The notes beneath the pieces were generated by a model. That model did no database searches. It saw only the letters and a list, made by a program, of their open reading frames with translations, and was not told the DNA's origin. A program made the translations under genes and the position numbers. Below are positions 5,109 through 43,561 of a stretch of DNA of 48,782 bases, piece after piece (positions within the stretch are counted from its first letter, which is position 1; every line of letters begins with the position of its first letter). The DNA is from Woeseiaceae bacterium. GTDB taxonomy: Bacteria > Pseudomonadota > Gammaproteobacteria > Steroidobacterales > Woeseiaceae. The stretch is taken from NCBI GenBank assembly GCA_028277265.1, contig JANQGP010000213.1, forward strand, positions 1 through 48,782, read 5' to 3'.

Positions 5109-5113
5109 CGCGC

Positions 5114-9870: not shown

Positions 9871-9871
9871 C

Positions 9872-13417: not shown

Positions 13418-13424
13418 ATCGATC

Positions 13425-15211: not shown

Positions 15212-15231
15212 TTCGCCGTTCTTGCGCCAGG

Positions 15232-15247
15232 CGGCAACGGCTTGCCG
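15232..15247. terminator. short GC hairpin between convergent genes (weak bidirectional terminator candidate)
   Basis: CGGCAA-cggc-TTGCCG, a 6-bp stem with a tetraloop, read from the sequence in the 40-bp gap between the guaD stop (15211) and the minus-strand stop (15252). No U-tract. Confidence 0.25.
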
Positions 15248-15251
15248 GGCC

Positions 15252-15779: not shown

Positions 15780-15797
15780 CGGCGCCTGCGATACCCG

Positions 15798-16247: not shown

Positions 16248-16346
16248 GTCGTGCCTCGTCGGAGGAGTGATTTGTACGTATGTTCCCGACTAGATGGACG
16301 CGATGCAATGAATTCATAGTCTCGGATTACCGAAACGGAAGCGACC

Positions 16347-16934: not shown

Positions 16935-16938
16935 CACA

Positions 16939-21059: not shown

Positions 21060-21149
21060 AGCAGCATAATCTTCGCCTGGTTATGTTCAAAAGACCGCGA
21101 CCTGATCGACACTTCGGGCACGCGCACACGAGAAGAAGGGGCGAGATCG

Positions 21150-21521
21150 ATGAAACGTTGGGTGGGTCGGTGGATCATGTTCGTTGGCGCGACACACTGC
21201 GTGTTTGGTGCGTTCGTCTTCTTTGAGCCCCTTTCGGGGATACTGCGCGATGGCCTGTGGAATGCCGTGAGCGGGTACCCGGGACGGCCCCTGGCGTTCT
21301 GGTTCGAATTGCTCGGTATATTGATGGTTCTGTTCGGCGCGACGATCGACCAGCTGGAAAAGAACCAGCAGGCAATTCCGAGGTACATCGCTGTCGGCTT
21401 TGCTTTCCTGACTGCACTGGCTATCGTCGCGATCCCTGCGAGCGGCGGCTGGCTCATGCTGCCGAGTGCCGTTGGTCTGTTCCTGGAGAAAGCTGACGTA
21501 CCCGGGCAGAACGGCCGCTGA
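21150..21521 (+). CDS. small membrane protein (about 4 TM)
   Basis: Only the last 123 codons of ORF 19914-21521 are used, starting at ATG 21150 (MKRWVGRWIMFVGATHCVFGAFVFF) after the purine-rich GAAGAAGGGG. The upstream part of that ORF is antisense to the AlbA_2 gene. Confidence 0.6.
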   Translation: MKRWVGRWIMFVGATHCVFGAFVFFEPLSGILRDGLWNAVSGYPGRPLAFWFELLGILMVLFGATIDQLEKNQQAIPRYIAVGFAFLTALAIVAIPASGGWLMLPSAVGLFLEKADVPGQNGR

Positions 21522-25959: not shown

Positions 25960-27255
25960 ATGAGCGAATCCCGGCAAGCGGGGACGCTGCAGCGCGTCTT
26001 CAAGTCCGCGGCGAACGTGGAGCCGAATGAGATCCGGGCGACGGTGCTGTCGTTCCTCTGGGTATTCTTCGTCATGTGTGCCTGGTATATCCTCCGACCC
26101 GTCAGGGACTCCCTGTCGTCGGACTGGACCAACGAGCAGTTGAGCTGGTTGTGGACGTCGACGTTCTTCTTCAGCGCACTGGCGGTCAGTATCTACGGGG
26201 CCGTCATATCGCGTGTCCGGTTCAATCTCATCGTGCCGAGCGTCTACGTGTTCTTTGCGCTCTCGTTCATCGGTTTTTATATTGCGGGCGCCACGATGAG
26301 CGGGAACGACATCGTCAACCGCATCTACTACGTGTGGACGAGCGTGTTCGGTCTGTTCCACCTGTCCGTCTTCTGGACTTTCATGTCGGGGCTTTACAAC
26401 AGTCGACAGGCCGAGCGTCTTTTCGGTGTGATCGCCGTCGGCGCCACGACCGGGGCGATAGCCGGCCCCGCGTTCGTCAGCGCGTTCGCCGACAACATCG
26501 GATCGCTGAACATGTTGTTCGTCAGCGCCGTGCTGCTATTGACGCCCCTCCCGATCATGGTCGCACTCAACAAGTTGCGTTCCGCGGCGCTCGGGAATCC
26601 GGACACCGCCAGGGATCTCGTCCGGGACGACCGGCTTGGCGCGAACCCGTTCTCCGGCTTCAAGGAATTCGTCGGCAGCCCGTACTTGCTCTGGATCGGT
26701 GTGTTCATCCTGCTGTACGTAACGATGAGCACTTTCCTGTACTACGAGATTCGCAAGCCGCTGGGCGATCTCGACCAGGTCCGCCGGTCGCAAATCTGGG
26801 CCAATATCGATCTCGCGGTGAATCTGCTGGCGGCAGTGACTGCATTGTTTGCGACGGGTCGGCTTGCGACGAAAGCCGGCATGCCGAGAACGCTCGCGCT
26901 CGTCCCGGCCATCATGATCGTGGCGTGGACCGTCGTCTCCGTCAATCCGACGGCACTGACCCTGTTTGTCGTGCAGGTAGTTCGCCGCGCAGGCAACTAT
27001 GCGATCACACGCCCGGCGCGCGAGATGCTGTTTACGCTCGTCGACTCCGAAAAACGCTACAAGGCCAAGCCGGTCATCGATACCGTGGTCTACCGGGGAG
27101 GTGACGTCATGACGGCATGGTTCTATACCGGCATCGTCGGTGCGTTCGGACTTACCCTGACGGGTGTCGCGGCCGTCGGTGCCGTGATCGCCGCGGTCTG
27201 GGTGGCCGTCGGCATCGTACTCGGCCGCAAATACAACCAGGGCGGGGAGCTGTGA
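25960..27255 (+). CDS. MFS-type transporter related to the TLC/Npt nucleotide-translocase family
   Basis: 431 aa with about 12 TM helices. The N-terminal FLWVFFVMCAWYILRPVRDSL matches the conserved YILKPVRDSL segment I recall from TLC-like MFS proteins of free-living bacteria. Substrate unknown. Confidence 0.55.
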   Translation: MSESRQAGTLQRVFKSAANVEPNEIRATVLSFLWVFFVMCAWYILRPVRDSLSSDWTNEQLSWLWTSTFFFSALAVSIYGAVISRVRFNLIVPSVYVFFALSFIGFYIAGATMSGNDIVNRIYYVWTSVFGLFHLSVFWTFMSGLYNSRQAERLFGVIAVGATTGAIAGPAFVSAFADNIGSLNMLFVSAVLLLTPLPIMVALNKLRSAALGNPDTARDLVRDDRLGANPFSGFKEFVGSPYLLWIGVFILLYVTMSTFLYYEIRKPLGDLDQVRRSQIWANIDLAVNLLAAVTALFATGRLATKAGMPRTLALVPAIMIVAWTVVSVNPTALTLFVVQVVRRAGNYAITRPAREMLFTLVDSEKRYKAKPVIDTVVYRGGDVMTAWFYTGIVGAFGLTLTGVAAVGAVIAAVWVAVGIVLGRKYNQGGEL

Positions 27256-27833
27256 AGAAAGCGCCGAGCTACGAGACACAGGAGCTGCGAGAGTTTGCGC
27301 GCGTTTTGCGCGGGCGCCGAACAATCGACCAGTACATCCAGACACCGGTGCCCGACGAGCTCGTGCTCGAGGCTATCGAGCTCGCGACCTGGGCGCCGAA
27401 CCACTACGTGACCGAACCGTGGCGCTTCATCCTTCCCGGCGAGGAGACGATCGGCCGTATCGTCGACCTGTGCGCCGAGACGGTAGCCGCGCAGAAGGGC
27501 CCGGAGCTCGGTGAGCACAAGCGCAAAACATGGAGCCAGAAACCCGGGTGGCTCGTCGTAACGTGCCGCCGCAATGATGACAAGCTGCGTGAGCGAGAGG
27601 ATTATGCGGCGTGCAGTGCGGCCGTGCAGAACTTCATGCTGTACCTCTGGAAAGCCGGTATCGGTTCTAAGTGGACTTCGGGTGCCGTCACGCGCGATGA
27701 ACGTCTCTTCGAAATCATCGGCGCGGACCCTGCGGCTGAATTCGTCGTCGGCATGATCTGGTTCGGCTATCCGAAGATCACGCCCCAACAGTCACGCACG
27801 GATTCGGACGAGGTTCTGACCCGGTTGCCCTGA
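27252..27833 (+). CDS. YdjA-like NAD(P)H nitroreductase family protein
   Basis: GTG start at 27252 with a GTGA overlap on the transporter stop. RGRRTIDQY, APNHYVTEPWRFIL and IGSKWTSGA...GMIWFGYP align with E. coli YdjA as I recall it. Confidence 0.75.
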   Translation: MKKAPSYETQELREFARVLRGRRTIDQYIQTPVPDELVLEAIELATWAPNHYVTEPWRFILPGEETIGRIVDLCAETVAAQKGPELGEHKRKTWSQKPGWLVVTCRRNDDKLREREDYAACSAAVQNFMLYLWKAGIGSKWTSGAVTRDERLFEIIGADPAAEFVVGMIWFGYPKITPQQSRTDSDEVLTRLP

Positions 27834-27875
27834 ACAGGAGAGCGATTGCTCTTGCTGCAGTTGACCGGATCTCAC

Positions 27876-27899
27876 GGGAGGCGGCCGTCATGCCCTCCC
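27876..27899. terminator. weak hairpin in a convergent intergenic gap
   Basis: GGGAGG-N12-CCTCCC, read from the sequence between the nitroreductase stop (27833) and the GH3 stop (27918). Large loop and no U-tract, so low confidence. Confidence 0.2.
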
Positions 27900-27917
27900 T
27901 GCCGCAGCGCATGCTAC

Positions 27918-29399
27918 TCAGCGATTCGCCGCAAACAGCTGCGGCCAGTCCCGCCTGCGATTGAGCGGCGTCGGTTTGATGTCACCGAGGCGCATGCCGT
28001 CGGAGACAAGCGCGCGGGTGTAGGTGCGATAGGCATTGCCTTCGGTCCTGAGCACGCGCACCGGCTGCAATTGCCCGAGTTCGCGACACAGGTTGTAGTG
28101 ATAGCCGGATCGCAGCGACCGGTCGAGATGGTCGCTCAGCTCCGCGGGGAGCGGATCGCGGCTCTCGATGAACAGGCAATAGCGTGGCTTATCACCATCC
28201 GGTGCGAGCATCGCGAACAGGGGCCTGACACCCGCATTATCCAGCACCGATGCGAGACAGGCGCCGACAAAATCCTCGCTGATCTTCTCGCCGCGGAGAT
28301 CGGAGACGTTGTCGGCTTTGCCGAGAAATTCGAGGCACGGCGTCGTGCGGTAGAAACCGGTTACGCGCACACGGTCGCGCAGGGCGTACCGGTACAGGCC
28401 GCCGCCCGTCGTGAGAATAACGGCATACTCCGCACCGTCTTGAAGAACCCAGGACGGCGATACGGTGCCGGTTTCGTCCTCGAATTCGAAAAAATGGCTG
28501 CGGATTGCGAGCGGCCGGTTCCCGCCAAACGGGATCGTGATCGCGCCCTCGGTGGCCAGGAGGCCCTTGGGCTGGATCGTGATGCCGGGAAAAGCGGCTT
28601 GCAGGTCCGGCAGTACGGAAGCGGCCTGCGCGTCGCCCCAGCAACTGATCAGCCTCAGCCCGGGCCACGGCAAGGTATCCGTCCCGGTTTGCTCGCGCAC
28701 CTTTTCCCGTAACAGAAGGACGAATGACGGGTGCCATGCGGAGATGAGGCGCAGGTCCGGACAGTCGAGAAGGGTTCTGGCCGTCATTCGCCAGAAGTCA
28801 TCATCGTCCTCGATCCCGGCCAGGTCCGGCAGTGACACCAATGCCCGGCCGAGGAGCCGCTGCGCGATTCCGCCGAGGTAGGCGGTATCGTCGTCGAAGC
28901 CGATTGGCACGGCGCTGGCCGGGCGCTCCGGGCGCGGCGCAGGCGGCGTCAGGCTCCAGTAGGCACGCCCGCCGCCAAGCGCCGGGTCGCCGAGGAACAG
29001 GCCGCAGATCCAGGCTGCGACTGCGCGCCGAAGCTCGCGTTGCAGGGAATCGGTGTAAGGAATCCACTTCTCGGCGCCCGACGAGCCGCTCGACGGCTCG
29101 AAAAGGCGCACGTTGTCGACCGTCAGCACGTTTTGCTCGCCTGAGGCGATACGCGCAATCCAGTCCCCGTAGTCTTCGTAGCGGCGCACGGGTACGGCGC
29201 CAACCCAGTCGTCATAGTCGCGGATCTTCTCGAAGCTGTGTTCACGGCCGAACCGTGTTGCGGCATTGCGTCGGAGATACTGGCTCAACAGATTCTGCTG
29301 CGCCGCTTCGGGGCGCCTGCTCGCGCGCCGATACCCAAGGTACTCGGGCAGGCATGACGCAAACCACGCGGCGTTGGCAATTGCGGCCGGGGCGTTCAC
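27918..29399 (-). CDS. GH3-family adenylate-forming amido-synthetase
   Basis: 493 aa with a GTG start. The N-terminal LLSQYLRRNAATRFGREHSFEKI and the nucleotide-binding motif EPSSGSSGAEKWIPYT match the GH3 signature SSGTTxGxxKxIP. Last gene of a five-gene, translationally coupled operon. Confidence 0.8.
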   Translation of the reverse strand: MNAPAAIANAAWFASCLPEYLGYRRASRRPEAAQQNLLSQYLRRNAATRFGREHSFEKIRDYDDWVGAVPVRRYEDYGDWIARIASGEQNVLTVDNVRLFEPSSGSSGAEKWIPYTDSLQRELRRAVAAWICGLFLGDPALGGGRAYWSLTPPAPRPERPASAVPIGFDDDTAYLGGIAQRLLGRALVSLPDLAGIEDDDDFWRMTARTLLDCPDLRLISAWHPSFVLLLREKVREQTGTDTLPWPGLRLISCWGDAQAASVLPDLQAAFPGITIQPKGLLATEGAITIPFGGNRPLAIRSHFFEFEDETGTVSPSWVLQDGAEYAVILTTGGGLYRYALRDRVRVTGFYRTTPCLEFLGKADNVSDLRGEKISEDFVGACLASVLDNAGVRPLFAMLAPDGDKPRYCLFIESRDPLPAELSDHLDRSLRSGYHYNLCRELGQLQPVRVLRTEGNAYRTYTRALVSDGMRLGDIKPTPLNRRRDWPQLFAANR

Positions 29400-30127
29400 C
29401 CGTCAACGACGTCGGGAAACAGTTCACGACCTTTGCGCCACATACGCTGTCCGAGGCGCGTAAGGCCGTCTTCGGCGAGAACGGCGAAGCACACGAGCTC
29501 GTCACCCTGTTCGTGGTTCGGGTTCCGCTCGGCGAAAAAGGCGATGTGCGGGTCCAACAGGCGATGCTCGGGAATTCCCCGGAATTCGTCCTTCAATACG
29601 GCCGGAGTATCGAGTTGCACAATGCCCGACGCCGGATCATACCGGGCACCGAAGCGGTCGCCGGCCACGGCATCCATGATCGCCTGCACCTCGGGCGGAG
29701 TAGCCTCGTCATAGCGCGGGTAGAAGCGCTGGCTGTAAACCGGCAGGAAGCGGTAGGTCCGGAAACCCGAGACGATCAGGAACCAGTAGAGCGCGTCCTT
29801 CCGGTACAAACGGCGCAGGTAGTCGATCGCTCCCATCCAGTAGTAGCTGAGTGCAGAATCGCTCCGGGTATCGGCACTAACGACCGTGTCGCCCGAATAC
29901 ACGACGGACATGTCGCGACCGTGGACCTCGACGTCGTAGATATCCATGCAGGAGAAGCCGCACAGCCGGCCTGTATCGTCGTCGAGCAGGAGCACCCAGT
30001 TCTTGCCTGCAAGATCGGTGTCGAAAACGACTTGCGGCACTCCATCGAACTGTTCGCAAAACAGTGCGTACATCGCGGCGCGAGTCGAGGGCAGCAGGTC
30101 AGTGCGTTTCACAACCTTGCCTTTCAC
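29396..30127 (-). CDS. hypothetical protein, possibly GNAT-like acyltransferase fold
   Basis: 243 aa with a GTG start. GTGA overlaps at both ends (with the upstream ORF and with GH3). Non-repetitive, coding-like composition. The fold guess rests only on beta-alpha patterning (WVLLLDDDTGRLCGFSC...YSGDTVV) and on context. Confidence 0.4.
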   Translation of the reverse strand: MKGKVVKRTDLLPSTRAAMYALFCEQFDGVPQVVFDTDLAGKNWVLLLDDDTGRLCGFSCMDIYDVEVHGRDMSVVYSGDTVVSADTRSDSALSYYWMGAIDYLRRLYRKDALYWFLIVSGFRTYRFLPVYSQRFYPRYDEATPPEVQAIMDAVAGDRFGARYDPASGIVQLDTPAVLKDEFRGIPEHRLLDPHIAFFAERNPNHEQGDELVCFAVLAEDGLTRLGQRMWRKGRELFPDVVDG

Positions 30128-31221
30128 AGGATGGCTACCTCCGGGTGCGGTATCCGATCGTCGAGTGCATCGACCGCTTGTTCGCCGTCCTGCCAGAACA
30201 CCGCGTACATGACGCTGACGTATTCATGGCAGGGAAAACTGCGACGAACGATACCTGCCAGCGGATTGCGTGCCGCGAACGCGAGCATGACGTAGTCGAT
30301 GCCGCGTTCCATGGCAAGCTGGCAACCTCGCGCGACGAGCCCCACAAGCGTATCGGCATCATCGTCGACTACAGCCACGTGTGACAGGAACGCGTTTTCG
30401 AGCCGCGCACCTGGCGCCGGCAGCCGCGGTCGGCCAACAAGGGGCGCCGCAAGGTTGTACAGCGGCCGAAGGCGCGCCAGTCGCTGGGCGTAGCCGCGAA
30501 TCACTGTCTGTTTGAAAGCGCGTTGGTCCCAGAGCGCAAGGCAGCCGCGGTCGCCGTCTCCGCAGACGATGAAGTCGTTCGGCGAGAGTCCGCGGCATCG
30601 CTCTTTCGATGCCAATGTGGCAGGCGTCCAGGCCGGGTGAAACTGGTAGCCACGGCCATTGCTCTCCAGCAACGCGACGACGTTCCCGACATGCCGGGTC
30701 GCTGCATTCGATGCCGGCGCGCCACGCCGGCGTGCGCCGAGTCTCGTCGGAATCGTGAACGTCACCAGGTCCTCGAGCGGGCGGTAGGTCGGCATGTCGC
30801 CGAGCCCGGCCTCGAGCAAGCGCCGGGCAGGCCGGTTGTCCGCGACAATCGTCGTCAGGTAGAACAAGACATCGCCCGCATTGTGGAACTCGTGCATCTT
30901 GCGATAGGAGCCGAGCAATAGTTTGCGCCGCGCGCGCAGGCCGCCCTCGGCGCGCAGTTCGCCGAAGTAGCCGATGCACTGCGGCTCGCCATTGACATAG
31001 GCCTTCAGCTCGAAGCGCCCACCCGATCCGATAACGTCGTCGTTTCGCATCGCCAGCATCATTTGCCAGTCGTCGCCCGAAACGGCGGCAGCATGGAATG
31101 CGTTGGGTTCGCGTTCCAGCGAGACACGAATCTCGCCGACAACGGGGTTTTCCCGTAGCAGGCGACGCAGTCCGGGCTCGGTCGCTTCAGTCGCCGCCGT
31201 GAACGTCAGTTCCGCTGACAT
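30124..31221 (-). CDS. hypothetical protein, possibly double GNAT-like/acyltransferase
   Basis: Start taken at ATG 31221 (MSAELTFTAA), 13 nt after the upstream radical SAM stop; the ORF-track start at 31299 would overlap that gene. 365 aa in two halves of similar size. No family recognised. Confidence 0.4.
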   Translation of the reverse strand: MSAELTFTAATEATEPGLRRLLRENPVVGEIRVSLEREPNAFHAAAVSGDDWQMMLAMRNDDVIGSGGRFELKAYVNGEPQCIGYFGELRAEGGLRARRKLLLGSYRKMHEFHNAGDVLFYLTTIVADNRPARRLLEAGLGDMPTYRPLEDLVTFTIPTRLGARRRGAPASNAATRHVGNVVALLESNGRGYQFHPAWTPATLASKERCRGLSPNDFIVCGDGDRGCLALWDQRAFKQTVIRGYAQRLARLRPLYNLAAPLVGRPRLPAPGARLENAFLSHVAVVDDDADTLVGLVARGCQLAMERGIDYVMLAFAARNPLAGIVRRSFPCHEYVSVMYAVFWQDGEQAVDALDDRIPHPEVAIL

Positions 31222-31234
31222 GCGCGCGACCTGG

Positions 31235-32602
31235 TCAGGCGACCGCGTGCGCCGGTTGCAGCTTGCCGCACCAGCCTTCGTCGCCCAGCGGCAGGTCATT
31301 GCGCTGCCGTACTTCGCGCCGCATCATGAAGTTGATCAGCGGGTATTGCCGCGCCATGAAAGCGGTCGAACGATTCACCGGGTCGGCGAATCGCCGCAGG
31401 ATACTCGGAATCGAGTAGAAGCGTTCACGGGCCCTGATGCAGAGTTCCTGCAGTTCTTCGGGTTCGAGTTGCTCCGGCCGGAACGGAATCTTGTTGTAGG
31501 TGTAGGTCGGGTCCATCCACCACGCGTCGTAGAGGAGGCGACCCTCTTCTTCGAGTCGCTGGTACAGCGGTGTACCGGGAAACGGCGTCAGGTGATTGAA
31601 CGCGGCCATGTAGAACCGGTGCTCGTGAGCAAAGGCGACGGCTTCATCGAAAGTCTGTGCCGTGTCGCCCCCGTAGCCGAACACGAAAGTGGCGTAAAGG
31701 CGAATGTGGTAGCGGCGCAGGTTCGCAAGCGCAACGTCGTAGCCGCCGCCCATCGTGTTGAACTTCTTCTTCATCAGGCGCAACGTTTCGCGCTCGAGAC
31801 TTTCGAAACCGATCAACAGCCCCTGGCAGCCGCTCTTCGAGATCAGGTCGAGGAATTCTTCGTCATGGGCTGCATTGATGCTCGCCTGCGAAACCCAACG
31901 AATCTTCAGGCGCGCAAGCTCACGGTACAAGTACTTGGCCTCGTCGAAATTCGAGGTAATGTTGTCGTCGACGAAAAAGTAGAAGTTGCCACGCTTCCGC
32001 GTTTCCTCCACTTCCTCGAGGATGTGGTCGATCGGGCGGCGGTTCTGCGTTGCACCGAAGTAACTTTGAACTGCGCAGAATTCGCAGCGAAAATGGCAGC
32101 CGCGACCTGCCTCGATAAGTGTGACCGGCACGTAGCGCTTGCCGCGAAAAATGCTTCGATCGAAACGCGCACGATCAAGATCGGGCCGGCTGTCCTGCCG
32201 ATAAAACGTCTTCAGCGTGTCGTGGCGGGCATCATCGAGCACCGTCTCCCACTGGCCTTCCGCCTCGCCAACGATGACGGCATCGGCGTACAGCGCCGCT
32301 TCGTCCGGGCACAGCGTGGCGTGAAAACCACCGAGCACCACCTTGACGCCGCGGGTTCGAAACTCGGTTGCAATCTGATAGGCGCGCCGAGCCGTATACG
32401 TCTCTATGCTGATCGCGACGAGGTCGGTCGGCTCGTCGTAGGGAATCCGCTCAAGACGATCGTCGTAGAAACGCACATCGACATCGTCAGGTGTGAGACC
32501 GGCGATCGATGCCGGCGCGAGCGGCTCCATTTGCCAGCTACGGATGTACTTCCGGTCACCGGCCCAGCGCCCGACGCAGGGATGAATCAGTGTGAGTCTC
32601 AC
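31235..32602 (-). CDS. B12-binding domain radical SAM protein (paralog A, DUF4070-type C-terminus)
   Basis: 455 aa with a GTG start. N-terminal B12-binding Rossmann segment (DLVAISIETYTARRAYQIATEFRTRGVKVVLGGFHAT). Radical SAM cluster motif GRGCHFRCEFCAV (CX3CX2C). C-terminal NHLTPFPGTPLY...WWMDP. Confidence 0.88.
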   Translation of the reverse strand: MRLTLIHPCVGRWAGDRKYIRSWQMEPLAPASIAGLTPDDVDVRFYDDRLERIPYDEPTDLVAISIETYTARRAYQIATEFRTRGVKVVLGGFHATLCPDEAALYADAVIVGEAEGQWETVLDDARHDTLKTFYRQDSRPDLDRARFDRSIFRGKRYVPVTLIEAGRGCHFRCEFCAVQSYFGATQNRRPIDHILEEVEETRKRGNFYFFVDDNITSNFDEAKYLYRELARLKIRWVSQASINAAHDEEFLDLISKSGCQGLLIGFESLERETLRLMKKKFNTMGGGYDVALANLRRYHIRLYATFVFGYGGDTAQTFDEAVAFAHEHRFYMAAFNHLTPFPGTPLYQRLEEEGRLLYDAWWMDPTYTYNKIPFRPEQLEPEELQELCIRARERFYSIPSILRRFADPVNRSTAFMARQYPLINFMMRREVRQRNDLPLGDEGWCGKLQPAHAVA

Positions 32603-33933
32603 GCGGCCTCCGGCTGCAGCATTCGCCAGTCACAGGTATAAAAACGGTCGAGGCGTCGGCCGTAATAGCGGTAGCCGAAGTTGGCGCCGAGATAAAGCGT
32701 CTTCGCAATCGGCGTCGCCAGCATGCGCTTGGCGATAGAGCGATAGCTATACACGCGGCGCCAGGTTTCCTGGTTGCCGAGCTCGAGTTCTCTCATACTC
32801 ATGCCGCGCGGCTGGAAAACGACGTGCTGCCCGTCGTAGAGCTCCCAGTTGCGCGTCAGGATGCGCCCCTCTCTTGCGAGCCGCTGATAAAGGCCCGTTC
32901 CGGGAAACGGCGTCAGGATGGCGAAGCGCGGCAGGTCAATGCGTGTGTCGATTACAAACTCGGCCGTTTTCTCGAAGACATCGGGCGTGTCGCTGTCGAG
33001 ACCGAAGACGAACGTGCCGTTGATGGCGATGCCGTGATCGTGGAAGCGGCGAATCCACTCCGCGTAGAGCTCCGGTGAGTTGAAACTCTTGCTCATGTCC
33101 TTGAGCGCCGCCCCGGAGATCGATTCGAAACCGACGAGCAGCGCAATGCAACCGCTTCGCGCGCACAAGTCGAGCAATTCTTCGTCGCGTGCCAGCAGGC
33201 TCGTTGCAAGCCCGCCCCACTTGATACCGAGGGGGGCCAGGGCCGTGAACAACTCTGCCGCGTAGGCCTTGTCGGCAACGAGGTTGAGGTCGATGAAAAT
33301 CGCGCGCCTGGCGCCCGTCGAGCGGATCTCGTCAATAACGTCGGCGACGGGTTTTTGATAGGGTTTGCGCCCCCACGCAAACGGCACGACGCAGAAGTCG
33401 CAGCGGTGATTACAGCCGCGGGTCGCCTCGAATACTCCGGTCTTGACGTGGCGCCCGCTCGGGATCAGGTCACGTCGCGCCGGCGGACGATTGGCAAGGC
33501 TCAGATCCGGCGCCTGCTCATAGCGCGCTTGCAGGCGGCCCGCGACGAAGTCGCGCAAGAGTTGAGGCCAGGTATCTTCAGCATAGCCGACGACGATGGC
33601 GTCGGCATGCGGCGCAGCATCGTCAGGTACCAATGTGACGTGCGGGCCGCCGAGCACGACCGTGATGCCGCGTGCGCGAAAGGCTGATGCGAGTTCGTAG
33701 GCGCGGCGTGCGGTGCCGGTGATGACGGTCATCCCGATAATGTCGGCGTCAAGATCGTGAGGAATCTCCTCGACGCCTTCGTCGTAAAGCGTGAGTTCGT
33801 GCTCGATGTCTTCCGGGATCAGCGCAGCAAGCGTCGGCAGGGTCAGGGGCGGGTACCGCAAGGACTTGCGAAAGATACCTCCGCGATGGCGGTATAACGG
33901 GCCCTTCGGCGATAGCAGGCTGATTCTCAGCAT
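32599..33933 (-). CDS. B12-binding domain radical SAM protein (paralog B, more divergent)
   Basis: 444 aa. B12-binding segment DIIGMTVITGTARRAYELASAFRARGITVVLGGPHVT. Cluster motif TRGCNHRCDFCVV. ILTPFPGTGLY. GTGA overlap with paralog A. Confidence 0.88.
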   Translation of the reverse strand: MLRISLLSPKGPLYRHRGGIFRKSLRYPPLTLPTLAALIPEDIEHELTLYDEGVEEIPHDLDADIIGMTVITGTARRAYELASAFRARGITVVLGGPHVTLVPDDAAPHADAIVVGYAEDTWPQLLRDFVAGRLQARYEQAPDLSLANRPPARRDLIPSGRHVKTGVFEATRGCNHRCDFCVVPFAWGRKPYQKPVADVIDEIRSTGARRAIFIDLNLVADKAYAAELFTALAPLGIKWGGLATSLLARDEELLDLCARSGCIALLVGFESISGAALKDMSKSFNSPELYAEWIRRFHDHGIAINGTFVFGLDSDTPDVFEKTAEFVIDTRIDLPRFAILTPFPGTGLYQRLAREGRILTRNWELYDGQHVVFQPRGMSMRELELGNQETWRRVYSYRSIAKRMLATPIAKTLYLGANFGYRYYGRRLDRFYTCDWRMLQPEAA

Positions 33934-34041
33934 AAGTAATGCCCCTGTGACGTGCGAACGTCTTCAACTGCTATCATCGTTACGGAAGGATTAACGACAA
34001 ACGCAGTTCAAGCAGCTTACCATGAGGGTATAGGAACCCGG

Positions 34042-35379
34042 ATGCGTATAACCTTCATCCGCCCGAACATGTACGACGATCGTTCTTCGGACGCGATGGA
34101 GCCATTGTGCTTTGCCATACTCAAGTCACTGACGCCAGCGGACGTCGAGGTCGAACTATTCGACGAACGCATTGAGGACATCCCTTTCGACCGCGAAACC
34201 GATCTCGTGGCGATGACGGTCGAAACTTACACTGCGCAGCGCGCCTACCAAATCGCCAGGTGTTTTCGTCGCCGCGGCATCCCGGTCGTCATGGGCGGCT
34301 ACCACCCGACGTTTCTCCCCGACGAGGCGCTGCGATTCGCTGACGCCGTGGTGAAGGGCGACGCCGAGGGCTTGTGGGAGAAGGTGGTCGAGGACGCCGC
34401 CAACGGCCGCCTGCAACGCCTGTACGAAGCGACGGAATTTCCAACGCTCGAGGGGCGCTTGCCCGATCGCTCGATCTTCGAGGGCAAGCGTTACGCTCCG
34501 ATAGGCCTGGTACAGTTCGGTCGCGGATGCCGCTTCAATTGTTCGTTCTGTTCGATTCGCGCGTTCTATGGCAACAGTCTGAGGCATCGCTCGGTCGCGG
34601 ACGTGGTCGAGGATATTCGCCGGTCCGGCAAGCGCCACATCTTTCTCGTCGACGATAACCTGTTCCTGAATCGGGATACGGCACGGTCGCTGTTCGAGGC
34701 GCTTGTCCCGCTCGGTATCGGCTGGTCGTGCCAGGTATCGATCGATATCGCGCGTGACGAGGAACTCGTAGGACTCATGCGAAAGAGCGGTTGCATCAGT
34801 GCGTTGATCGGCTTCGAGTCGCTCAACCCCGACAGCCTGCGTGAACTCAACAAACACTGGAATACCAAGTGGCAGTCCTACGATGACGCCGTAGAGGTCT
34901 TCCGGCGCGCCGGCATCATGCTCTACGGCACCTTCATTTTGGGTTGCGACCACGATTGCCCCGCATCATTCGATGCGACGGTCGACTTTGCGCTGCGTAA
35001 CAGATTCGTGCTGGCAAACTTCAACCCGCTGACGCCGACGCCGGGGGCGCCGCTGTTCGACAGGATGCGCGAGGAAGGTCGGTTGCTGCACGAGCGCTGG
35101 TGGCTCGACCCGGACTTCGGCTATGGCGATGCGACGTTTACACCGCGCGGCATGACGGCCGGGGAGCTGACTGCCGGGTGCTTTGCTGCACGTCGTCGCT
35201 TCAATACATTCGGATCCATCGCCCGGCGCCTGCTCGACGTGCGGGCAAACGCGCGCAGTCCGTTACGCGCGGGCGTCTTTCTCGCAGCGAACCTGATGTC
35301 GCGGCGCGAGATTCTCTCCAAGCAGGGGCGCCGGCTAGGTGCCGCAACACCTTTACAAGAGGCGGAGATCAGCGCGTGA
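34042..35379 (+). CDS. B12-binding domain radical SAM protein (paralog C)
   Basis: Start at ATG 34042 (MRITFIRPNMYDD), matching the N-termini of paralogs A and D. Motifs DLVAMTVETYTAQRAYQIARCFRRRGIPVVMGGYHPT, GRGCRFNCSFCSI and NPLTPTPGAPLF...WWLDP. Confidence 0.88.
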   Translation: MRITFIRPNMYDDRSSDAMEPLCFAILKSLTPADVEVELFDERIEDIPFDRETDLVAMTVETYTAQRAYQIARCFRRRGIPVVMGGYHPTFLPDEALRFADAVVKGDAEGLWEKVVEDAANGRLQRLYEATEFPTLEGRLPDRSIFEGKRYAPIGLVQFGRGCRFNCSFCSIRAFYGNSLRHRSVADVVEDIRRSGKRHIFLVDDNLFLNRDTARSLFEALVPLGIGWSCQVSIDIARDEELVGLMRKSGCISALIGFESLNPDSLRELNKHWNTKWQSYDDAVEVFRRAGIMLYGTFILGCDHDCPASFDATVDFALRNRFVLANFNPLTPTPGAPLFDRMREEGRLLHERWWLDPDFGYGDATFTPRGMTAGELTAGCFAARRRFNTFGSIARRLLDVRANARSPLRAGVFLAANLMSRREILSKQGRRLGAATPLQEAEISA

Positions 35380-36752
35380 GAGTTTCGTTCATTCGACCCA
35401 ACATCGGGCGGCTCGTCGACGGACCGTATATTGACGAGGGTCGTATGCAGCCGCTGACGCTCGGCGTGATCGCAGCGTATACACCACCGGATGTCGAGTG
35501 CGTGCTGCACGACGATCGTATGGAGGAGATTCCCTTCGACGACCCGACAGACCTCGTGGCGGTTACCGTGGAGATCTACAATGCCCGGCGTGCCTTCGAG
35601 ATTGCGGCCGAGTACCGCAGGCGCGGTGTGCCGGTAGTCATGGGTGGTTTTCACCCCACGCTGGTTCCGGACGAGTGCCTCGAGCACGCCGATGCGATCG
35701 TGACGGGCGATGCGGAGGAAGTTTGGCCGCAGATCGTAGAGGATGCCCGTGCAGGACGACTGCAAAGGACCTACTCCGGAACGACGGGCGCGCCGCAGCC
35801 GGGCGGCAGACCCGCGCGCCGTGACCTGTTCAAGGGGAAGGGCTACCTGCCGGTTGGTCTCGTCCAGTTCGGCAGGGGTTGCCGCTTCGCGTGCTCGTTC
35901 TGCGCCATATCGACGTTCTTCAATCGCACGCAGTGTGTGCGGCCGGTCGAGGATGTCGTCGCGGAGATCGAGGGCCAGGACCAGAAGCTGATCTTCTTCG
36001 TCGATGACAACCTTGTATCGGATCACGAGCGCGCCAAGGAATTGCTGCGAGCGCTGATTCCGCTGAACATTCGCTGGGTGTCGCAGGGGTCGATCGACAT
36101 GACCGAGGACCCTGAGCTCATGGACCTCATCGAAGCGAGTGGTTGCCAGGGGTTCGTCATCGGATTCGAATCGATGATGCCGGAAAGCGTCAAGAGCATG
36201 CGCAAGGCCTGCAACCTGAGCAAGGTCTACAGTGGCTGGGACCGGTACCAGCGCCAGGTAGACATCCTGCGCAAACACCACTTGCAGACCTGGGCCGCGT
36301 TTACCCTTGGCCACGACACCGATACCCTCGAGTCCATCGCCGAAACCTTGCACTTTGCCGAGGAGTCCAGGTTCTGCTTCGCGGCATTCAATATCCTCAT
36401 GCCGTATCCGAGTACACCGCTGTACGCGAAGCTCGAGGCGGAAAATCGTTTGCTGTGGCGGGGCAAGTGGTGGCTGCACCAGGATTACCGTTTTAATCAC
36501 GCGGCTTTCATACCGAAAAACATGTCGCCCGACGAGCTGACCGAAGCCGTGCTGCGAAACCGTTTACGCTGGAATTCACTGTCGTCGATTTTCAATCGCG
36601 TGTGGGATTTCCAGACACACCTCAACTCGTTCTATCGCCTTGGTACGTACCTCGTCTACAACCGGCTTTACGCCAGGGAAAGCCTGACCAAACAGGGTAT
36701 GTTCTTCGGGAAGTACAGGGGACGCATTCCGGATGTCAGGCAAGCAATCTGA
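35376..36752 (+). CDS. B12-binding domain radical SAM protein (paralog D)
   Basis: GTG start at 35376 (VRVSFIRPNIG) with a GTGA overlap on the paralog C stop. Motifs DLVAVTVEIYNARRAFEIAAEYRRRGVPVVMGGFHPT, GRGCRFACSFCAI and NILMPYPSTPLY...WWLHQD. Confidence 0.88.
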   Translation: MRVSFIRPNIGRLVDGPYIDEGRMQPLTLGVIAAYTPPDVECVLHDDRMEEIPFDDPTDLVAVTVEIYNARRAFEIAAEYRRRGVPVVMGGFHPTLVPDECLEHADAIVTGDAEEVWPQIVEDARAGRLQRTYSGTTGAPQPGGRPARRDLFKGKGYLPVGLVQFGRGCRFACSFCAISTFFNRTQCVRPVEDVVAEIEGQDQKLIFFVDDNLVSDHERAKELLRALIPLNIRWVSQGSIDMTEDPELMDLIEASGCQGFVIGFESMMPESVKSMRKACNLSKVYSGWDRYQRQVDILRKHHLQTWAAFTLGHDTDTLESIAETLHFAEESRFCFAAFNILMPYPSTPLYAKLEAENRLLWRGKWWLHQDYRFNHAAFIPKNMSPDELTEAVLRNRLRWNSLSSIFNRVWDFQTHLNSFYRLGTYLVYNRLYARESLTKQGMFFGKYRGRIPDVRQAI

Positions 36753-36853
36753 TCGCGCGCGGCGCATGCGCAGCGGGCCGTGAACAAGATCAAATACGGC
36801 GACTGGGGGCTCAAGCCCTGCGTCGACGTTATTGAAGGAAGGGAATCAATATC

Positions 36854-37276
36854 ATGAATACAGTGTCAATCCTCAAATTCTGCCTGTGGGTAGCGTGTGC
36901 ATTCCATCTCGTTATCGGTCTCGGACTCAATCTGTTGCCGTCGTTCCCGCAAGTGATGGCGGGCTACTATGGCGCCGAGGTCGAATTCACGCCGCAGTTT
37001 CTCTATATCCTGAAGCCGCTCGGCGCGTTCATGATTGCCGTCGGCATCATGGCTGCCGCTGCCGCGAGGGATCCTCTGAATAATGCGATGATCGTCTACG
37101 CACTCGTCGCGTTGTTCACGATGCGCGCACTGCAGCGCTTCGTATTCCAGGACACGATCGTTTCAGAGCTGTCGATCGAAGCATCGCGCAACATCGTCAA
37201 TGCCATTGTTTTCCTGGCGCTGGCCATGATTTTCGCGGTTCTGTTCAAGACGGCGCAGAATAACGCGGCCACCTGA
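36854..37276 (+). CDS. small 4-TM membrane protein
   Basis: 140 aa with four hydrophobic helices. Starts 101 nt downstream of paralog D on the same strand. The start region is noticeably more AT-rich than its surroundings. No family recognised. Confidence 0.6.
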   Translation: MNTVSILKFCLWVACAFHLVIGLGLNLLPSFPQVMAGYYGAEVEFTPQFLYILKPLGAFMIAVGIMAAAAARDPLNNAMIVYALVALFTMRALQRFVFQDTIVSELSIEASRNIVNAIVFLALAMIFAVLFKTAQNNAAT

Positions 37277-38541: not shown

Positions 38542-39744
38542 CTAAGGGGCCGTAGTGTGCCCGTCCGTCAGTAACTCCGCCAGTTGCGGCGTTCCGAGCC
38601 AGTAGGCCAGCTCGCGCGGATGACCGATCTCCCAGATGGCCAGGTCGGCGCGTTTACCCACTTCGACGGTGCCACGATCGTCGAGTCCCAGCGCACGTGC
38701 AGCCTCGCGCGTGGCGCCGGCGAGGCATTCCTCCGGTGTCAGCCGGAACAGTCGGGCGGCGAGCATCATTGCGTTCCGAATGCTGCATATCGGTGACGTG
38801 CCGGGATTGCAGTCGGACGCCACCGCCATCGGCACGCCTGCGCCGCGCAATGAATCGACGGGAGGAACCTGTTTCTCGCCCAGCGTCAGGAACGCGCCGG
38901 GCAGGAGCACGGCCACGGCACCGGCGCGAGCCATCGACCTGACGCCGTCGGCGGAGGCGTACTCGAGATGATCGGCCGACAGGGCGCCGAACCCCGCGGC
39001 AAGGGCGGCGCCGCCGGAATCGCTCAGTTGATCGGCGTGCAGTTTGACCGGGAGGCCGAGTTCCGTAGCGCGCGCGAATACCCTTGCCACCTGACTGGTG
39101 GAGAAGGCGATGGACTCACAATACGCGTCGACGGCATCCGCCAGCCGTCCGGCAACGACTTCGGGCAGTAACTCATCGCAGATCAGGTCGACATAGCCGT
39201 CCGGATCGTCCGCAAACTCAGGTGGCACGGTGTGGGCGGCCAGCAGCGTCGTACGAATCGTCGCGCCGCTCGCCTCGCCGAGCCGTCGCGCCACCGACAG
39301 CATCTTGAGTTCACTGTCAATGTCGAGTCCGTAGCCCGACTTGATCTCGATCGTTCCCGTGCCCTCGGCCTGCAAGGCGAGAACGCGAGGTAATGCCGCG
39401 GCGTAGAGTTCGTCGGCGGAGGCTCGTCGCGTCGCCCTGACCGTCGACATGATGCCGCCACCGGCTCGGGCGATGTCCTCGTAACTCTCGCCACGCAACC
39501 GACGTTCGAATTCCCCGGAGCGGTCGCCGGCGAACACGAGATGCGTGTGGCAGTCGATCAGCGCGGGCGTGACCCAGCGGCCGCCCAAGGATCGGCGCTC
39601 GGTCGCTTCGATACCGGGCAGGTCGGCCAGCGGACCGAGCCAGGCGATCCTGCCGCCTTCGATTGCGATCGCGGCGTCGTCGACGACGCCGTAGTCAGGC
39701 CCGGCCATGGTCGCAATGCTCAGATTGGTCAGCAGCAGGTCCAT
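38542..39744 (-). CDS. hutI: imidazolonepropionase
   Basis: Start taken at ATG 39744 (MDLLLTNLSIATMAG), which aligns with known HutI N-termini; the ORF-track start is 39762. Motifs LIDCHTHLVFAGDRSGEFERRL and ARAGGGI. Confidence 0.92.
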   Translation of the reverse strand: MDLLLTNLSIATMAGPDYGVVDDAAIAIEGGRIAWLGPLADLPGIEATERRSLGGRWVTPALIDCHTHLVFAGDRSGEFERRLRGESYEDIARAGGGIMSTVRATRRASADELYAAALPRVLALQAEGTGTIEIKSGYGLDIDSELKMLSVARRLGEASGATIRTTLLAAHTVPPEFADDPDGYVDLICDELLPEVVAGRLADAVDAYCESIAFSTSQVARVFARATELGLPVKLHADQLSDSGGAALAAGFGALSADHLEYASADGVRSMARAGAVAVLLPGAFLTLGEKQVPPVDSLRGAGVPMAVASDCNPGTSPICSIRNAMMLAARLFRLTPEECLAGATREAARALGLDDRGTVEVGKRADLAIWEIGHPRELAYWLGTPQLAELLTDGHTTAP

Positions 39745-39771
39745 TGCATCGCACGGTATCATGCACTAACC

Positions 39772-39781
39772 TGTATATACA
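39772..39781. promoter_or_regulatory. HutC operator candidate: perfect palindrome TGTATATACA (TGTA-N2-TACA)
   Basis: A 10-bp perfect palindrome read from the sequence. It sits in the 53-bp divergent hutI/hutF intergenic region, and a hutC repressor gene lies in the same locus. It matches the TGTA-N2-TACA HutC site reported for Pseudomonas. Confidence 0.65.
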
Positions 39782-39797
39782 ACTTGAGGGGTCGTGA

Positions 39798-41150
39798 ATG
39801 ACAACGCTGTTTGCCCGCAAAGCCCTGCTTCCGGACGGATGGACCGACCGCGTCCGACTGCACGTCGATGGCGGGCGCATCGCGAAGGTCGAGGCCGGCG
39901 TCGACGCCGAGTCGGGCGATGAATCGCTGGGTTGTGTCATCCCGGGTCTTTGCAATGCGCACAGCCATGCGTTTCAGCGCGCACTGGCCGGCCACACCGA
40001 GCAGCGTTCGCCGGCCGGACGGGACAGTTTCTGGACCTGGCGCGAGAAGATGTATGAGCTCGCCGGGCGCGTCGGTGCGTCTGCACTGACGGCCATCGCC
40101 CGCCAGGCCTATTGCGAGATGCTGCGCTCGGGCTACACGTCGGTTGCCGAATTTCACTACCTGCATCGTGACCCCACCGATGGCGATGCCGTCGACACGA
40201 TGTTCGACGCGATCGTGACGGCGGCGCGCGACAGCGGCATACGCCTGACCTATCTGCCGGTGCACTACGAACGCGCCGGCTTCGAAGCACCGGAGCCGAC
40301 CGAGCGCCAGGCCGGCTTCGCCATGTCGGTGGATGAATTCCTGGCGCATCTCGATCGCGCCGCCGGGCGCTGTGCCGGGCGCATCAGCCTCGGCGTCGGG
40401 GCACACAGCCTGCGCGCCGTCAGTGCGACGTCGTTGCAGCGAATCGTCGACGTTGCCTCGCGGGACGGCTTACCGATGCACCTGCACATTGCCGAACAGC
40501 GGCGCGAGGTCGATGAGTGTCTGGCGTCGTACGGACTGCGGCCTGTCGAGTGGCTGCTCGACAGCTTTGACGTCGGAGATGACTGGAGCCTCGTTCATGC
40601 GACCCACATGAACGTCGAGGAGACCGAGGCGCTGGCAGTGTCGGGCGCTGTCGCCGTGCTCTGTCCGAGTACCGAGGCCAACCTCGGCGACGGCCTGTTT
40701 CCGTTGCATGATTTCCTGGCCGCCGGCGGTCACATTGCGATCGGCTCGGACAGTCACGTTTCGATAAACCCCTTCGAGGAGCTTCGCTGGCTCGAGTACG
40801 GGCAACGACTCGCGACACAGACACGTAACGTCGTATCGCTGCGTGAAGGCCATGTCGGCAGCGAGCTGTTCGCGCGCGCGCTCGAAGGCGGCGCACGCGC
40901 GAGCGGGCAGGAGACGGTCGGCCTTGGCGTCGGCGCACCCGCCGATCTTGTCGCGCTTGGCGACGACGATCCGATGTTCGCCGGCCACGACGACGATTCG
41001 CGGCTCGATGCCCTCGTGTTTTCCGGTTATCCGCTGCCCATCGAACGCGTGATGGTAGACGGCTGTTGGCGTGTCGAGGACGGCGTTCACGTCGATCGTG
41101 ATCGCGCGCGCGATGCATTCATCACGACGCTGGAGCGAATCGGGTCATGA
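39798..41150 (+). CDS. hutF: formimidoylglutamate deiminase
   Basis: 450 aa amidohydrolase. Motifs PGLCNAHSHAFQRALAG and HLHIAEQRREV. Located in the hut locus together with hutG. Confidence 0.9.
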   Translation: MTTLFARKALLPDGWTDRVRLHVDGGRIAKVEAGVDAESGDESLGCVIPGLCNAHSHAFQRALAGHTEQRSPAGRDSFWTWREKMYELAGRVGASALTAIARQAYCEMLRSGYTSVAEFHYLHRDPTDGDAVDTMFDAIVTAARDSGIRLTYLPVHYERAGFEAPEPTERQAGFAMSVDEFLAHLDRAAGRCAGRISLGVGAHSLRAVSATSLQRIVDVASRDGLPMHLHIAEQRREVDECLASYGLRPVEWLLDSFDVGDDWSLVHATHMNVEETEALAVSGAVAVLCPSTEANLGDGLFPLHDFLAAGGHIAIGSDSHVSINPFEELRWLEYGQRLATQTRNVVSLREGHVGSELFARALEGGARASGQETVGLGVGAPADLVALGDDDPMFAGHDDDSRLDALVFSGYPLPIERVMVDGCWRVEDGVHVDRDRARDAFITTLERIGS

Positions 41151-41911
41151 ATACGGGCAAGCCGCGTTACCAGCAGCTCAAGGACCTGATCATCGGGCGC
41201 ATCTCGAGCGGCGAGCTTCGTCCGGCCGATCGTGTACCGTCGGAAAACGAGCTCGTCGAGTCGATGAACGTATCGCGCATGACGGCAAATCGTGCGCTGC
41301 GCGAACTTCACGACGAGGGCTACGTCGAGCGTATCGCAGGGCGCGGCACGTTCGTCTCGGACTTTCGCTCGCAGTCGCACTTGCTGGAAGTCAAGAGCAT
41401 TGCCGACGAGATCGCGGGTCGCGGCCACACGCACACGAGCGAAGTCGTCCGGCAGTCGCGGCAGCACGCGCGCGGCGAGGTAGCCAGGGCACTGCATGTC
41501 GAGCAAGGCAACGACGTTTTTCACCTGTTGCTCGTGCATTACGAGAACGGCGCGCCGGTCCAGGTCGAGGACCGGCACGTGCTGGCAAGCTTTGCGCCGC
41601 GGTGCCTGGAGCAGGATTTCCGGCGAGTGACACCGAGCGCCTACCTGACATCGGTCGCGCCGTTGCAGGAGGCTGAGCAGGTCGTTCGTGCCGCCATGCC
41701 GAACGCTGCTGTCAGGCAGCGGCTCAACATGGCAGAGGGCGAGCCGGCGCTCGTCGTGATCCGTCGCACCTGGTCGAAGGGGAGGCCCGTGACGTTCTCG
41801 CGTCTTCATCACCCCGGCAGCCGTTACGAGTTGACCGCGCACTACACACCACCCGGCACATCGCGTTCGGCGTCGCCCGACGTCGTGCAACTGGAGCAGT
41901 TGAGACAATGA
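41147..41911 (+). CDS. hutC: histidine utilization repressor (GntR/HutC family)
   Basis: The winged [43 protein letters not shown] is followed by a UTRA-type effector domain. ATGA overlaps on both sides. Confidence 0.92.
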
Positions 41912-43560: not shown

Positions 43561-43561
43561 C

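Follow-up and report, generated by a model that had tools for sequence, protein, structure and literature searches.

The question raised by this locus is what a group of ten genes makes that brings together known superfamilies in a combination without a described counterpart. The genes occupy about 11 kb (positions 25960–37276) of a 48,782-nucleotide stretch of DNA from a Woeseiaceae bacterium, called the window here. They encode four B12-binding radical SAM (rSAM) proteins, a GH3-family acyl-acid amido synthetase, two proteins without a family model (ORF365 and ORF243), an MFS transporter, a nitroreductase-superfamily flavoprotein and a small membrane protein. Five of these genes form a translationally coupled unit that is kept as a block across phyla, and structure models show GNAT acyltransferase folds for ORF365 and ORF243. 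Our answer, to which we give a probability of roughly 45%, is that the GH3 protein and the two GNAT-fold proteins would assemble an N-acyl amide amphiphile, which would then be tailored by cobalamin radical chemistry.

A five-gene unit kept across phyla

The core genes lie on the minus strand in the order rSAM-B (444 amino acids, 32599–33933), which is the first gene of the operon, rSAM-A (455 amino acids, 31235–32602), ORF365 (30124–31221), ORF243 (29396–30127) and GH3 (493 amino acids, 27918–29399). According to coordinates and sequence, rSAM-B and rSAM-A, ORF365 and ORF243, and ORF243 and GH3 overlap by four nucleotides each, and 13 nucleotides separate rSAM-A from ORF365. A scan with one genome per species found 123 relatives, of which the best 80 were listed and 79 loci returned (L006–L084); these were placed by the taxonomic labels under which the genomes are filed. 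All 79 loci come from metagenome-assembled genomes (MAGs), and no isolate genome was among the best 80 of the 123 matches. Gene shares were computed over the 47 loci with enough flanking DNA, by matching the window proteins to all open reading frames (ORFs) of a locus. The complete core was found in the same order and on the same strand in 41 of these 47 loci, and each core gene was present in 94–98% of them, with 98% for GH3 as well as for ORF243.

Over ten phyla are represented among the hosts, which comprise Woeseiaceae and further Gammaproteobacteria, Acidobacteriota, Verrucomicrobiota, Planctomycetota, Desulfobulbia, Myxococcota, Campylobacterota, Bdellovibrio, Calditrichia and Gemmatimonadales. 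A permuted order (ORF243, GH3, rSAM-B, rSAM-A, ORF365, rSAM-C, rSAM-D) is present in Campylobacterota and some Gammaproteobacteria. A profile search of 1.84 billion cluster representatives returned 1,863 representatives of 50%-identity clusters for the ORF365 family (E ≤ 1e-30), and the homologues found run into the hundreds for ORF365 and amount to 1,433 for ORF243. Every named copy of either family is called hypothetical, and these named copies come from Woeseiaceae or other MAGs. The earlier note had described the cluster as an orphan, which does not hold with 1,863 ORF365 cluster representatives and hosts from so many phyla; its suggestion that the genes form one functional unit is borne out by the synteny. 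Accidental adjacency, or a set of decaying remnants without joint function, would fit the loss of the MMPL, thiolase, 240-amino-acid membrane protein and FA_hydroxylase genes from the window copy in comparison with its closest relatives. Against this stand the order and strand kept across phyla, the four-nucleotide overlaps at the junctions and the full length of all window ORFs relative to their homologues, so that we consider accident or decay extremely improbable.

Two of the loci, L080 (1–21044) and L067, come from bins assigned to DPANN archaea (Nanoarchaeota, Woesearchaeota). The GC content of L080 is 31%, and its cassette, which carries a PEMT/ICMT-type membrane methyltransferase, lies directly upstream of genes for an STT3/AglB oligosaccharyltransferase and a GT4 protein. 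Either the cassette has reached archaea or these contigs were misbinned.

The other genes of the cluster are more narrowly shared. Head-to-head with the core operon, the plus strand carries rSAM-C (445 amino acids, 34042–35379), an accessory paralogue paired with rSAM-D (458 amino acids from a GTG at 35376, 35376–36752), which it overlaps by four nucleotides. rSAM-C-like genes were found in 45% and rSAM-D-like genes in 34% of the 47 loci. The next gene on this strand encodes a four-helix membrane protein of 140 amino acids (36854–37276), whose homologues adjoin rSAM-D only in Woeseiaceae-type loci and in one planctomycete. On the other side, the MFS transporter (25960–27255) and the nitroreductase (27252–27833), both on the plus strand and again overlapping by four nucleotides, converge on GH3 across 84 nucleotides. 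The MFS gene stands beside the cassette only in close Woeseiaceae relatives; MFS, nitroreductase and four-helix protein are lineage-specific neighbours, each present in about 9% of the 47 loci and only in close relatives. The intergenic gaps of the cluster measure 13, 84, 101 and 108 nucleotides. The ORF list contains all ten ORFs at these positions, and the layout proposed earlier, with its overlaps, the 13-nucleotide gap, the head-to-head operons and the convergent pair, was confirmed at every gene and junction.

The most likely start codons are ATG at 34042 for rSAM-C, GTG at 35376 for rSAM-D, ATG at 31221 for ORF365 and GTG at 27252 for the nitroreductase; before this refinement, the ORFs scanned for the first three were 33952–35379, 35100–36752 and 30124–31299. 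The spacer of 108 nucleotides between rSAM-B and rSAM-C (33934–34041) is the presumed site of the promoters of both operons, and no consensus sigma-70 site was found in it. A scan for promoters and terminators gave counts at or below the shuffled expectation. Rfam had no match in the whole window, hence no cobalamin riboswitch.

The annotation of the two plus-strand genes beside GH3 had been more specific than the models allow. The transporter passes MFS_1 with 37.3 bits, as the name "TLC-like MFS" implied, whereas its resemblance to TLC is marginal: the match covers just the last 100 residues and, with 20.3 bits, stays under the cut-off of 21 for a TLC ATP/ADP transporter. The flavoprotein reaches 76.6 bits with Pfam Nitroreductase. 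Its supposed likeness to YdjA holds at the level of the superfamily but not of the family (40.9 bits against a cut-off of 183), and the NCBIfam models for YdjA, BluB and FbiB were all far under cut-off.

Predicted activities of the encoded proteins

ORF365 and ORF243 belong to no Pfam or NCBIfam family, and the same is true for the four-helix membrane protein. The two ORFs had been regarded as unassignable; the structural comparison with AlphaFold2 and Foldseek that the earlier note suggested now gives both a GNAT acyltransferase fold, in ORF243 over the N-terminal part. The ORF365 model, built from family alignments, has a predicted local distance difference test (pLDDT) score of 86.1 and a predicted template modelling score (pTM) of 0.87 and represents a tandem GNAT. 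Its top matches in the PDB are eukaryotic N-myristoyltransferases (NMTs; E about 3e-12, template modelling (TM) score about 0.6, about 400 columns). NMTs also make up most of the top 50 matches (E 3e-12 to 5e-11, TM 0.57–0.66), and Eis-like and other tandem GNATs rank after them. For ORF243 the model has a pLDDT of 92.8, and about 135 N-terminal residues match the GNATs NatD and AAC(2')-Ia with E about 1e-5. The TM score of the whole ORF243 protein to GNATs is about 0.4, and an additional C-terminal part, a putative extra domain, comprises about 100 residues.

Comparisons of sequence gave little for either family. ORF365 does not match the Pfam families NMT and NMT_C, and none of 35 members of its family matches NMT even at E ≤ 5. 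When all members of both families were compared with Pfam at E ≤ 5, only sporadic weak GNAT matches appeared, such as a weak one to Acetyltransf_9 in 4 of 35 members of the ORF243 family (E 0.016). The sequence-profile search of the PDB with ORF365 yielded only chance-level matches to myosin (E about 0.8). In a profile comparison of the two families, ORF243 matched the N-terminal half of ORF365 weakly, with a probability of 31%.

One feature of ORF365 is strictly conserved. The C-terminus (30124–30160) ends in PEVAIL directly before the stop codon, the family form being PE(V/I)A(L/I)L, and E-x-x-x-Leu followed immediately by the stop was found in 78 of 79 homologues across phyla; the exception is cut at a contig end. 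Remote versions from Citrobacter, Acinetobacter and Burkholderia keep the glutamate at position -5 with its spacing, and their last residue is hydrophobic. NMT uses its C-terminal carboxylate as the catalytic base. A parallel role of the ORF365 C-terminus is only suggestive, since model confidence is low over the last three residues (pLDDT below 50).

The GH3 protein is assigned by all three Pfam domains, with 116.7, 53.7 and 36.2 bits for the N-terminal, central and C-terminal domain against a cut-off of 23.6, and plant GH3 structures match it at E 1e-9 to 1e-14. By eye, the putative nucleotide-binding-type motifs SSGSSG, LLATEG and YRYALRD can be recognised as variants of the plant motifs, the references for ATP/AMP binding being S/T-S-G-T/S-T/S, Y-x-x-S/T-E and Y-R-x-G-D. 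The best NCBIfam match is OlsH (NF052613). To our knowledge, OlsH is the only characterised bacterial GH3 example. It ligates a fatty acid to ornithine with ATP in a membrane-lipid pathway of Singulisphaera acidiphila (PMC12493201). An identity as OlsH lyso-ornithine lipid synthetase was rejected, since the match reaches 55.8 bits against a cut-off of 620 and the cluster has no OlsI or OlsG; Pfam detected neither an OlsI-type alpha/beta-hydrolase nor an OlsG N-methyltransferase among the window cluster genes. A neighbour of about 365 amino acids without family match, seen at L052 (2721–3815) and 15 other loci (21% of loci), contains S-L-S-K-G-G, which resembles the nucleophile elbow of alpha/beta-hydrolases. 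In the OlsH pathway, the O-acyltransferase OlsI belongs to the alpha/beta-hydrolases.

All four rSAM proteins pass Radical_SAM (PF04055) and carry one CxxxCxxC each, within residues 163–174: CHFRCEFC at residue 169 in rSAM-A, CNHRCDFC at 174 in rSAM-B, CRFNCSFC at 163 in rSAM-C and CRFACSFC at 169 in rSAM-D. The B12-binding domain (PF02310, cut-off 32.1 bits) is passed by rSAM-A (41.7), rSAM-B (46.4) and rSAM-C (33.7). rSAM-D falls just under it with 31.6 bits; it has 47.4 bits for Radical_SAM and is 44% identical to rSAM-A and rSAM-C over its whole length. rSAM-A reaches 59 bits with Radical_SAM and also matches DUF4070. The mutual identity of the four proteins is 37–45%, closer than to any named family, in agreement with the earlier assignment as four B12-binding paralogues. 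Their domains and motifs show the class-B (cobalamin) architecture, from which the use of cobalamin is predicted. Between phyla, rSAM-A is 50–65% and rSAM-B 55–66% identical, whereas ORF365, ORF243 and GH3 are far less conserved, with only 30–48%.

None of the named class-B models in NCBIfam (HpnJ, HpnR, BchE, PhpK, rSAM_ladder_B12, BzaD, QCMT, AprD4 and others) reaches its cut-off; the best scores are 85–97 bits against cut-offs of 481–600, and overall the range is 50–97 against 250–775. The nearest solved structure by sequence is PDB 9CCB (E 3e-13), the glutamine C-methyltransferase of methyl-coenzyme M reductase, which is a distant class-B relative only. Together with the ORF365 fold, closest to protein NMTs, this match could point to modification of a protein or ribosomal peptide, in which the NMT-like enzyme would lipidate an N-terminus or a lysine and the rSAM proteins would methylate residues as QCMT, Mmp10 and PoyC do. 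However, no precursor-sized ORF fits into gaps of 13–108 nucleotides, a Sulfuricurvum version of the operon is essentially gap-free, and Pfam and NCBIfam revealed no protease, RiPP recognition element (RRE) or leader-binding domain. Moreover, GH3 enzymes act on small carboxylic acids, and the neighbours of the cassette are lipid-type enzymes. We judge this reading to be improbable. A cluster for a ribosomally synthesised and post-translationally modified peptide (RiPP) as such was rejected, since neither the window nor the Sulfuricurvum operon has space for a precursor gene.

Fuller, mobile and radical-SAM-free versions

The flanking ORFs of all loci were clustered and representatives annotated with Pfam and NCBIfam. 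A SnoaL_3/DUF4440 (NTF2-like) protein with a signal peptide and a C-terminal membrane anchor was found in 66% of loci, a fatty-acid desaturase family protein (FA_desaturase) in 55% and a PAP2_3 protein in 53%. Further neighbours are a Rieske protein (32%), a 240-amino-acid membrane protein (28%), an AurF-like di-iron protein (26%) and an MMPL/HAE3 exporter (15%), and a PEMT/ICMT methyltransferase adjoins some cassettes. The exporters differ by lineage, examples being MMPL/HAE3 and a set of HlyD, MFS and outer-membrane efflux factor (OEP). In NCBIfam, nothing among the core and accessory proteins reaches a cut-off. The dedicated transport that had been proposed for the cluster thus applies loosely, in that cassettes of other lineages carry exporters; the MFS/TLC-like gene of the window itself occurs only at about 9% of loci, all from close relatives.

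The closest comparison is provided by L003 (1–21116), a well-assembled Woeseiaceae relative with the same four rSAM genes, the 240-amino-acid membrane protein, the four-helix protein and an FA_hydroxylase. Within the same flanks as in the window it also holds genes for MMPL, a thiolase, AsnC and a TPR protein. Six of these L003 genes (MMPL, thiolase, AsnC, 240-amino-acid membrane protein, FA_hydroxylase and TPR protein) are absent from the window, where only 84–101 nucleotides are left at the corresponding junctions. Because these accessory genes are missing, the window copy is a reduced version of the cassette. A complete Woeseiaceae chromosome combines the core with MMPL, PAP2, DUF4440, desaturase and further rSAM genes.

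In a Sulfuricurvum MAG (L070, 1064–20602), the whole set forms one gap-free operon of eleven genes in the order desaturase, PAP2_3, DUF4440, ORF243, GH3, rSAM-B, rSAM-A, ORF365, rSAM-C, rSAM-D and membrane protein. This compact operon has no room for other functions. Around it lie genes for a resolvase, a type I/III restriction subunit, Fic/DOC, a Dam-type methylase and two phage-type integrases, which places it on a mobile island. These flanks also prompted the idea of an anti-phage defence system, which was rejected since PADLOC gave only weak generic rSAM similarity to PDC-M51A (20–30 bits).

A protein-level plasmid search revealed the full cassette in a cultured bacterium, on an IncFIB/IncFII plasmid of Citrobacter portucalensis 64A:C (NZ_CP134684.1, 51417–63512; L085). 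The genes are annotated there as hypothetical protein, GH3, radical SAM (five copies), N-acetyltransferase, PAP2 and fatty acid desaturase, and no copy of this cassette was found in complete E. coli genomes. The isolate comes from a gull, the plasmid is mobilizable, and the cassette adjoins an alpha-2-macroglobulin operon.

Two further cultured bacteria carry the GH3 gene and both GNAT-type genes without rSAM genes. In Acinetobacter baumannii X4-300 (NZ_CP064203.1; L086, 6022–14799), HlyD, MFS and OEP genes are interspersed among the ORF243-like, GH3 and ORF365-like genes, and SurE follows. In Burkholderia arboris MEC_B345 (NZ_CP101525.1; L087, 11953–19383) the trio lies beside a desaturase and a Rieske protein. 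NZ_CP064203.1 and NZ_CP101525.1 are megabase-sized replicons filed as plasmids. Since such rSAM-free versions exist, GH3 and the two GNATs are a module of their own, to which rSAM proteins, membrane enzymes and exporters have been added.

The accessory genes bear on two alternatives. It might be that the cassette remodels an existing envelope lipid, such as the amine of phosphatidylethanolamine or a lyso-lipid, an aminolipid or lipid A, with the GNATs and GH3 decorating the head group and the rSAM proteins methylating or cross-linking the chains. A periplasm-facing PAP2_3 and a membrane-anchored NTF2-like protein with signal peptide are the commonest accessories and would suit such a role. In addition, the hosts are nearly all diderm bacteria, movement between phyla would need a universally available substrate, and conservation is far higher for rSAM-A and rSAM-B (55–65% identity) than for the other genes (30–45%). 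On the other hand, inspection by eye (no prediction was run) revealed neither membrane segments nor signal peptides in the GH3, GNAT and rSAM proteins, and the trio-only versions in efflux-pump operons suggest a free, exportable product. Moreover, two loci are binned, unverified, to DPANN archaea, which have no lipopolysaccharide. Taken together, remodelling of a pre-existing lipid appears unlikely to us.

Such efflux operons could alternatively mean that a soluble, secreted specialised metabolite is made, for example a multiply C-methylated amino-acid or polyamine conjugate serving as signal, siderophore or antibiotic. The interleaving of the Acinetobacter trio with a tripartite pump, the variation of exporters among lineages and the AurF-like and Rieske oxygenases at some loci are consistent with this, and class-B rSAM enzymes are common in antibiotic pathways, the distant matches including PhpK, CysS and AprD4. 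However, the fold of ORF365 is nearest to that of a long-chain acyltransferase, lipid-type neighbours are seen in the desaturase, PAP2_3, PEMT/ICMT and MMPL proteins, no polyketide synthase (PKS), non-ribosomal peptide synthetase (NRPS) or carrier protein was found among the ORFs scanned, and such strong conservation over more than ten phyla would be unusual for an antibiotic cluster. We therefore hold a secreted metabolite for an unlikely product too.

In the source genome itself the cassette does not look newly acquired. Its GC content (0.56–0.65) is within the range of the window, and its flanks, GGDEF and AhpC upstream and an MFS transporter and an amidohydrolase downstream, are kept in five related Woeseiaceae MAGs with 63–80% amino-acid identity. 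A recent horizontal insertion was rejected on these grounds, and with it the earlier impression of an accessory insertion. The cassette is resident in the Woeseiaceae lineage and clearly mobile on a wider scale, as seen in the integrase-flanked Sulfuricurvum island and the Citrobacter IncF plasmid.

The surrounding window contains catabolic genes. Upstream (4898–18084) lie xanthine-dehydrogenase subunits, a membrane urate oxidase (Urate_ox_N), an amidohydrolase and a glycerate-kinase-like gene, a set for purine catabolism. Downstream (38542–45091) follow an imidazolonepropionase-like gene, a GntR/UTRA regulator, urocanase and histidine ammonia-lyase, which belong to histidine utilisation. A 535-amino-acid ORF with a TTG start (19914–21521) matches DUF6463 with residues 414–526 only; its long N-terminal part had no match, and the ORF may be over-extended.

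A candidate N-acyl amide amphiphile and the closest known systems

How could these enzymes work together? Three amide- or ester-forming enzymes without a carrier protein, PKS or NRPS suggest that a carboxylic acid, an amine and acyl donors are joined into a small scaffold; that the window has no PKS or NRPS, as had been noted, was seen again among the large flanking ORFs that were scanned, a subset of the window ORFs. GH3 would activate a carboxylate by adenylation and couple it to an amine; this carboxylate could be a fatty acid, as with OlsH, or the carboxyl group of an N-acyl amino acid. ORF365 might move a long acyl chain from acyl-CoA or acyl-ACP onto a primary amine, with its C-terminal carboxylate possibly acting as the base as in NMT, and ORF243 would add a second acyl group. 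Two to four cobalamin rSAM paralogues could then methylate or otherwise rearrange unactivated carbons of the scaffold. In the fuller cassettes, the membrane desaturase or hydroxylase, the periplasm-facing PAP2_3 and the membrane-anchored NTF2-like protein would tailor the product further, and MMPL or a tripartite pump would deliver it to the envelope or export it from the cell. The presence of these membrane and periplasmic enzymes and of exporters is the reason to place the amphiphile in or beyond the envelope. In the window copy, MFS transporter, nitroreductase and small membrane protein stand in place of these accessories. The idea that radical chemistry modifies an amide-linked small molecule or lipid, already put forward in the earlier note, is better founded with the GNAT folds and the lipid-type neighbours, although they do not establish the product.

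Several points weigh against an N-acyl amide amphiphile. The length of the acyl donor and the acceptor are guesses from the modelled fold alone, with no significant match to GNAT sequences, and the low confidence at the end of the ORF365 model bears on whether the C-terminus reaches into the active site. The window has no genes for desaturase, PAP2, NTF2-like protein, MMPL or the 240-amino-acid membrane protein, and the lipid context is thus borrowed from relatives. Furthermore, the substrates of class-B rSAM enzymes also include peptides, cofactors and antibiotics, and the efflux context in Acinetobacter fits a secreted small molecule equally well as a lipid.

A more specific proposal, which is tentative and rather doubtful, is that the amphiphile represents an undescribed class of envelope lipids. 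Cobalamin radical chemistry would have placed methyl branches or rings on the head group or chains of such an N-acyl amide lipid, and its acyltransferase would be a bacterial NMT-like enzyme that uses its C-terminal carboxylate as base. Its producers would be very abundant uncultured Woeseiaceae, Acidobacteriota and Verrucomicrobiota of sediments and soils. If this is true, unassigned sedimentary lipids could derive from it. A large and strongly conserved cassette has thus gone without annotation, two of its protein families have no model, and its hosts include mostly uncultured lineages that dominate marine sediments and soils. We know of no case in which a GH3 ligase, an NMT-like acyltransferase and multiple cobalamin rSAM enzymes work together, and given this combination of three enzyme logics the product is likely to be new chemistry with a demand for cobalamin. 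The plasmid-borne cassette in cultured Citrobacter and the rSAM-free trios of Acinetobacter and Burkholderia make the question directly testable.

The earlier statement that no characterised pathway matches was upheld by NCBIfam scores far under the cut-offs and by the literature, in which our search found no description of a cassette with radical SAM, GH3 and GNAT genes. It is not described in the OlsH paper (PMC12493201) or in a 2026 aminolipid review. A 2026 review of lipid-modifying rSAM enzymes, which covers Tes, Mss, Gms, GrsA/B, Gmm, Cds, HpnH/J/P/R, Jaw5 and the ladderane genes, mentions no GH3/GNAT system or partner.

Among known systems, the OlsH/OlsI/OlsG ornithine-lipid pathway shares with the cassette the formation of an amide by GH3 in lipid synthesis (PMC12493201), and the FA_hydroxylase neighbour of some relatives has its best, weak match in the ornithine-lipid hydroxylase OlsE. 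Unlike the cassette, the Ols pathway has no pair of GNAT-fold proteins and none of the two to four cobalamin rSAM enzymes. The class-B enzymes HpnJ, HpnP/HpnR, BchE, PhpK, GrsA/B, Gmm, CysS, TokK and QCMT have in common with the rSAM proteins of the cassette the N-terminal B12-binding domain, the CxxxCxxC core, a DUF4070-type C-terminal region and lipid-type gene contexts, whereas none of the class-B systems of the 2026 review is paired with GH3 or GNAT genes. NMT and ORF365 share the tandem-GNAT fold, the ORF365 C-terminus being strictly conserved with a hydrophobic end; they differ in that ORF365 shows no similarity to the Pfam families of NMT at the level of sequence, is bacterial and encoded in an operon with GH3 and rSAM genes, and probably has an acceptor other than a protein. 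In mycothiol synthesis, the ATP-dependent amide ligase MshC acts first, and the tandem-GNAT N-acyltransferase MshD then acylates the newly attached amino group. MshC belongs to a different ligase superfamily, a sequence relationship is not expected, and the cassette does not have the sugar-inositol context, but the logic of a ligase followed by a tandem GNAT may well be analogous.

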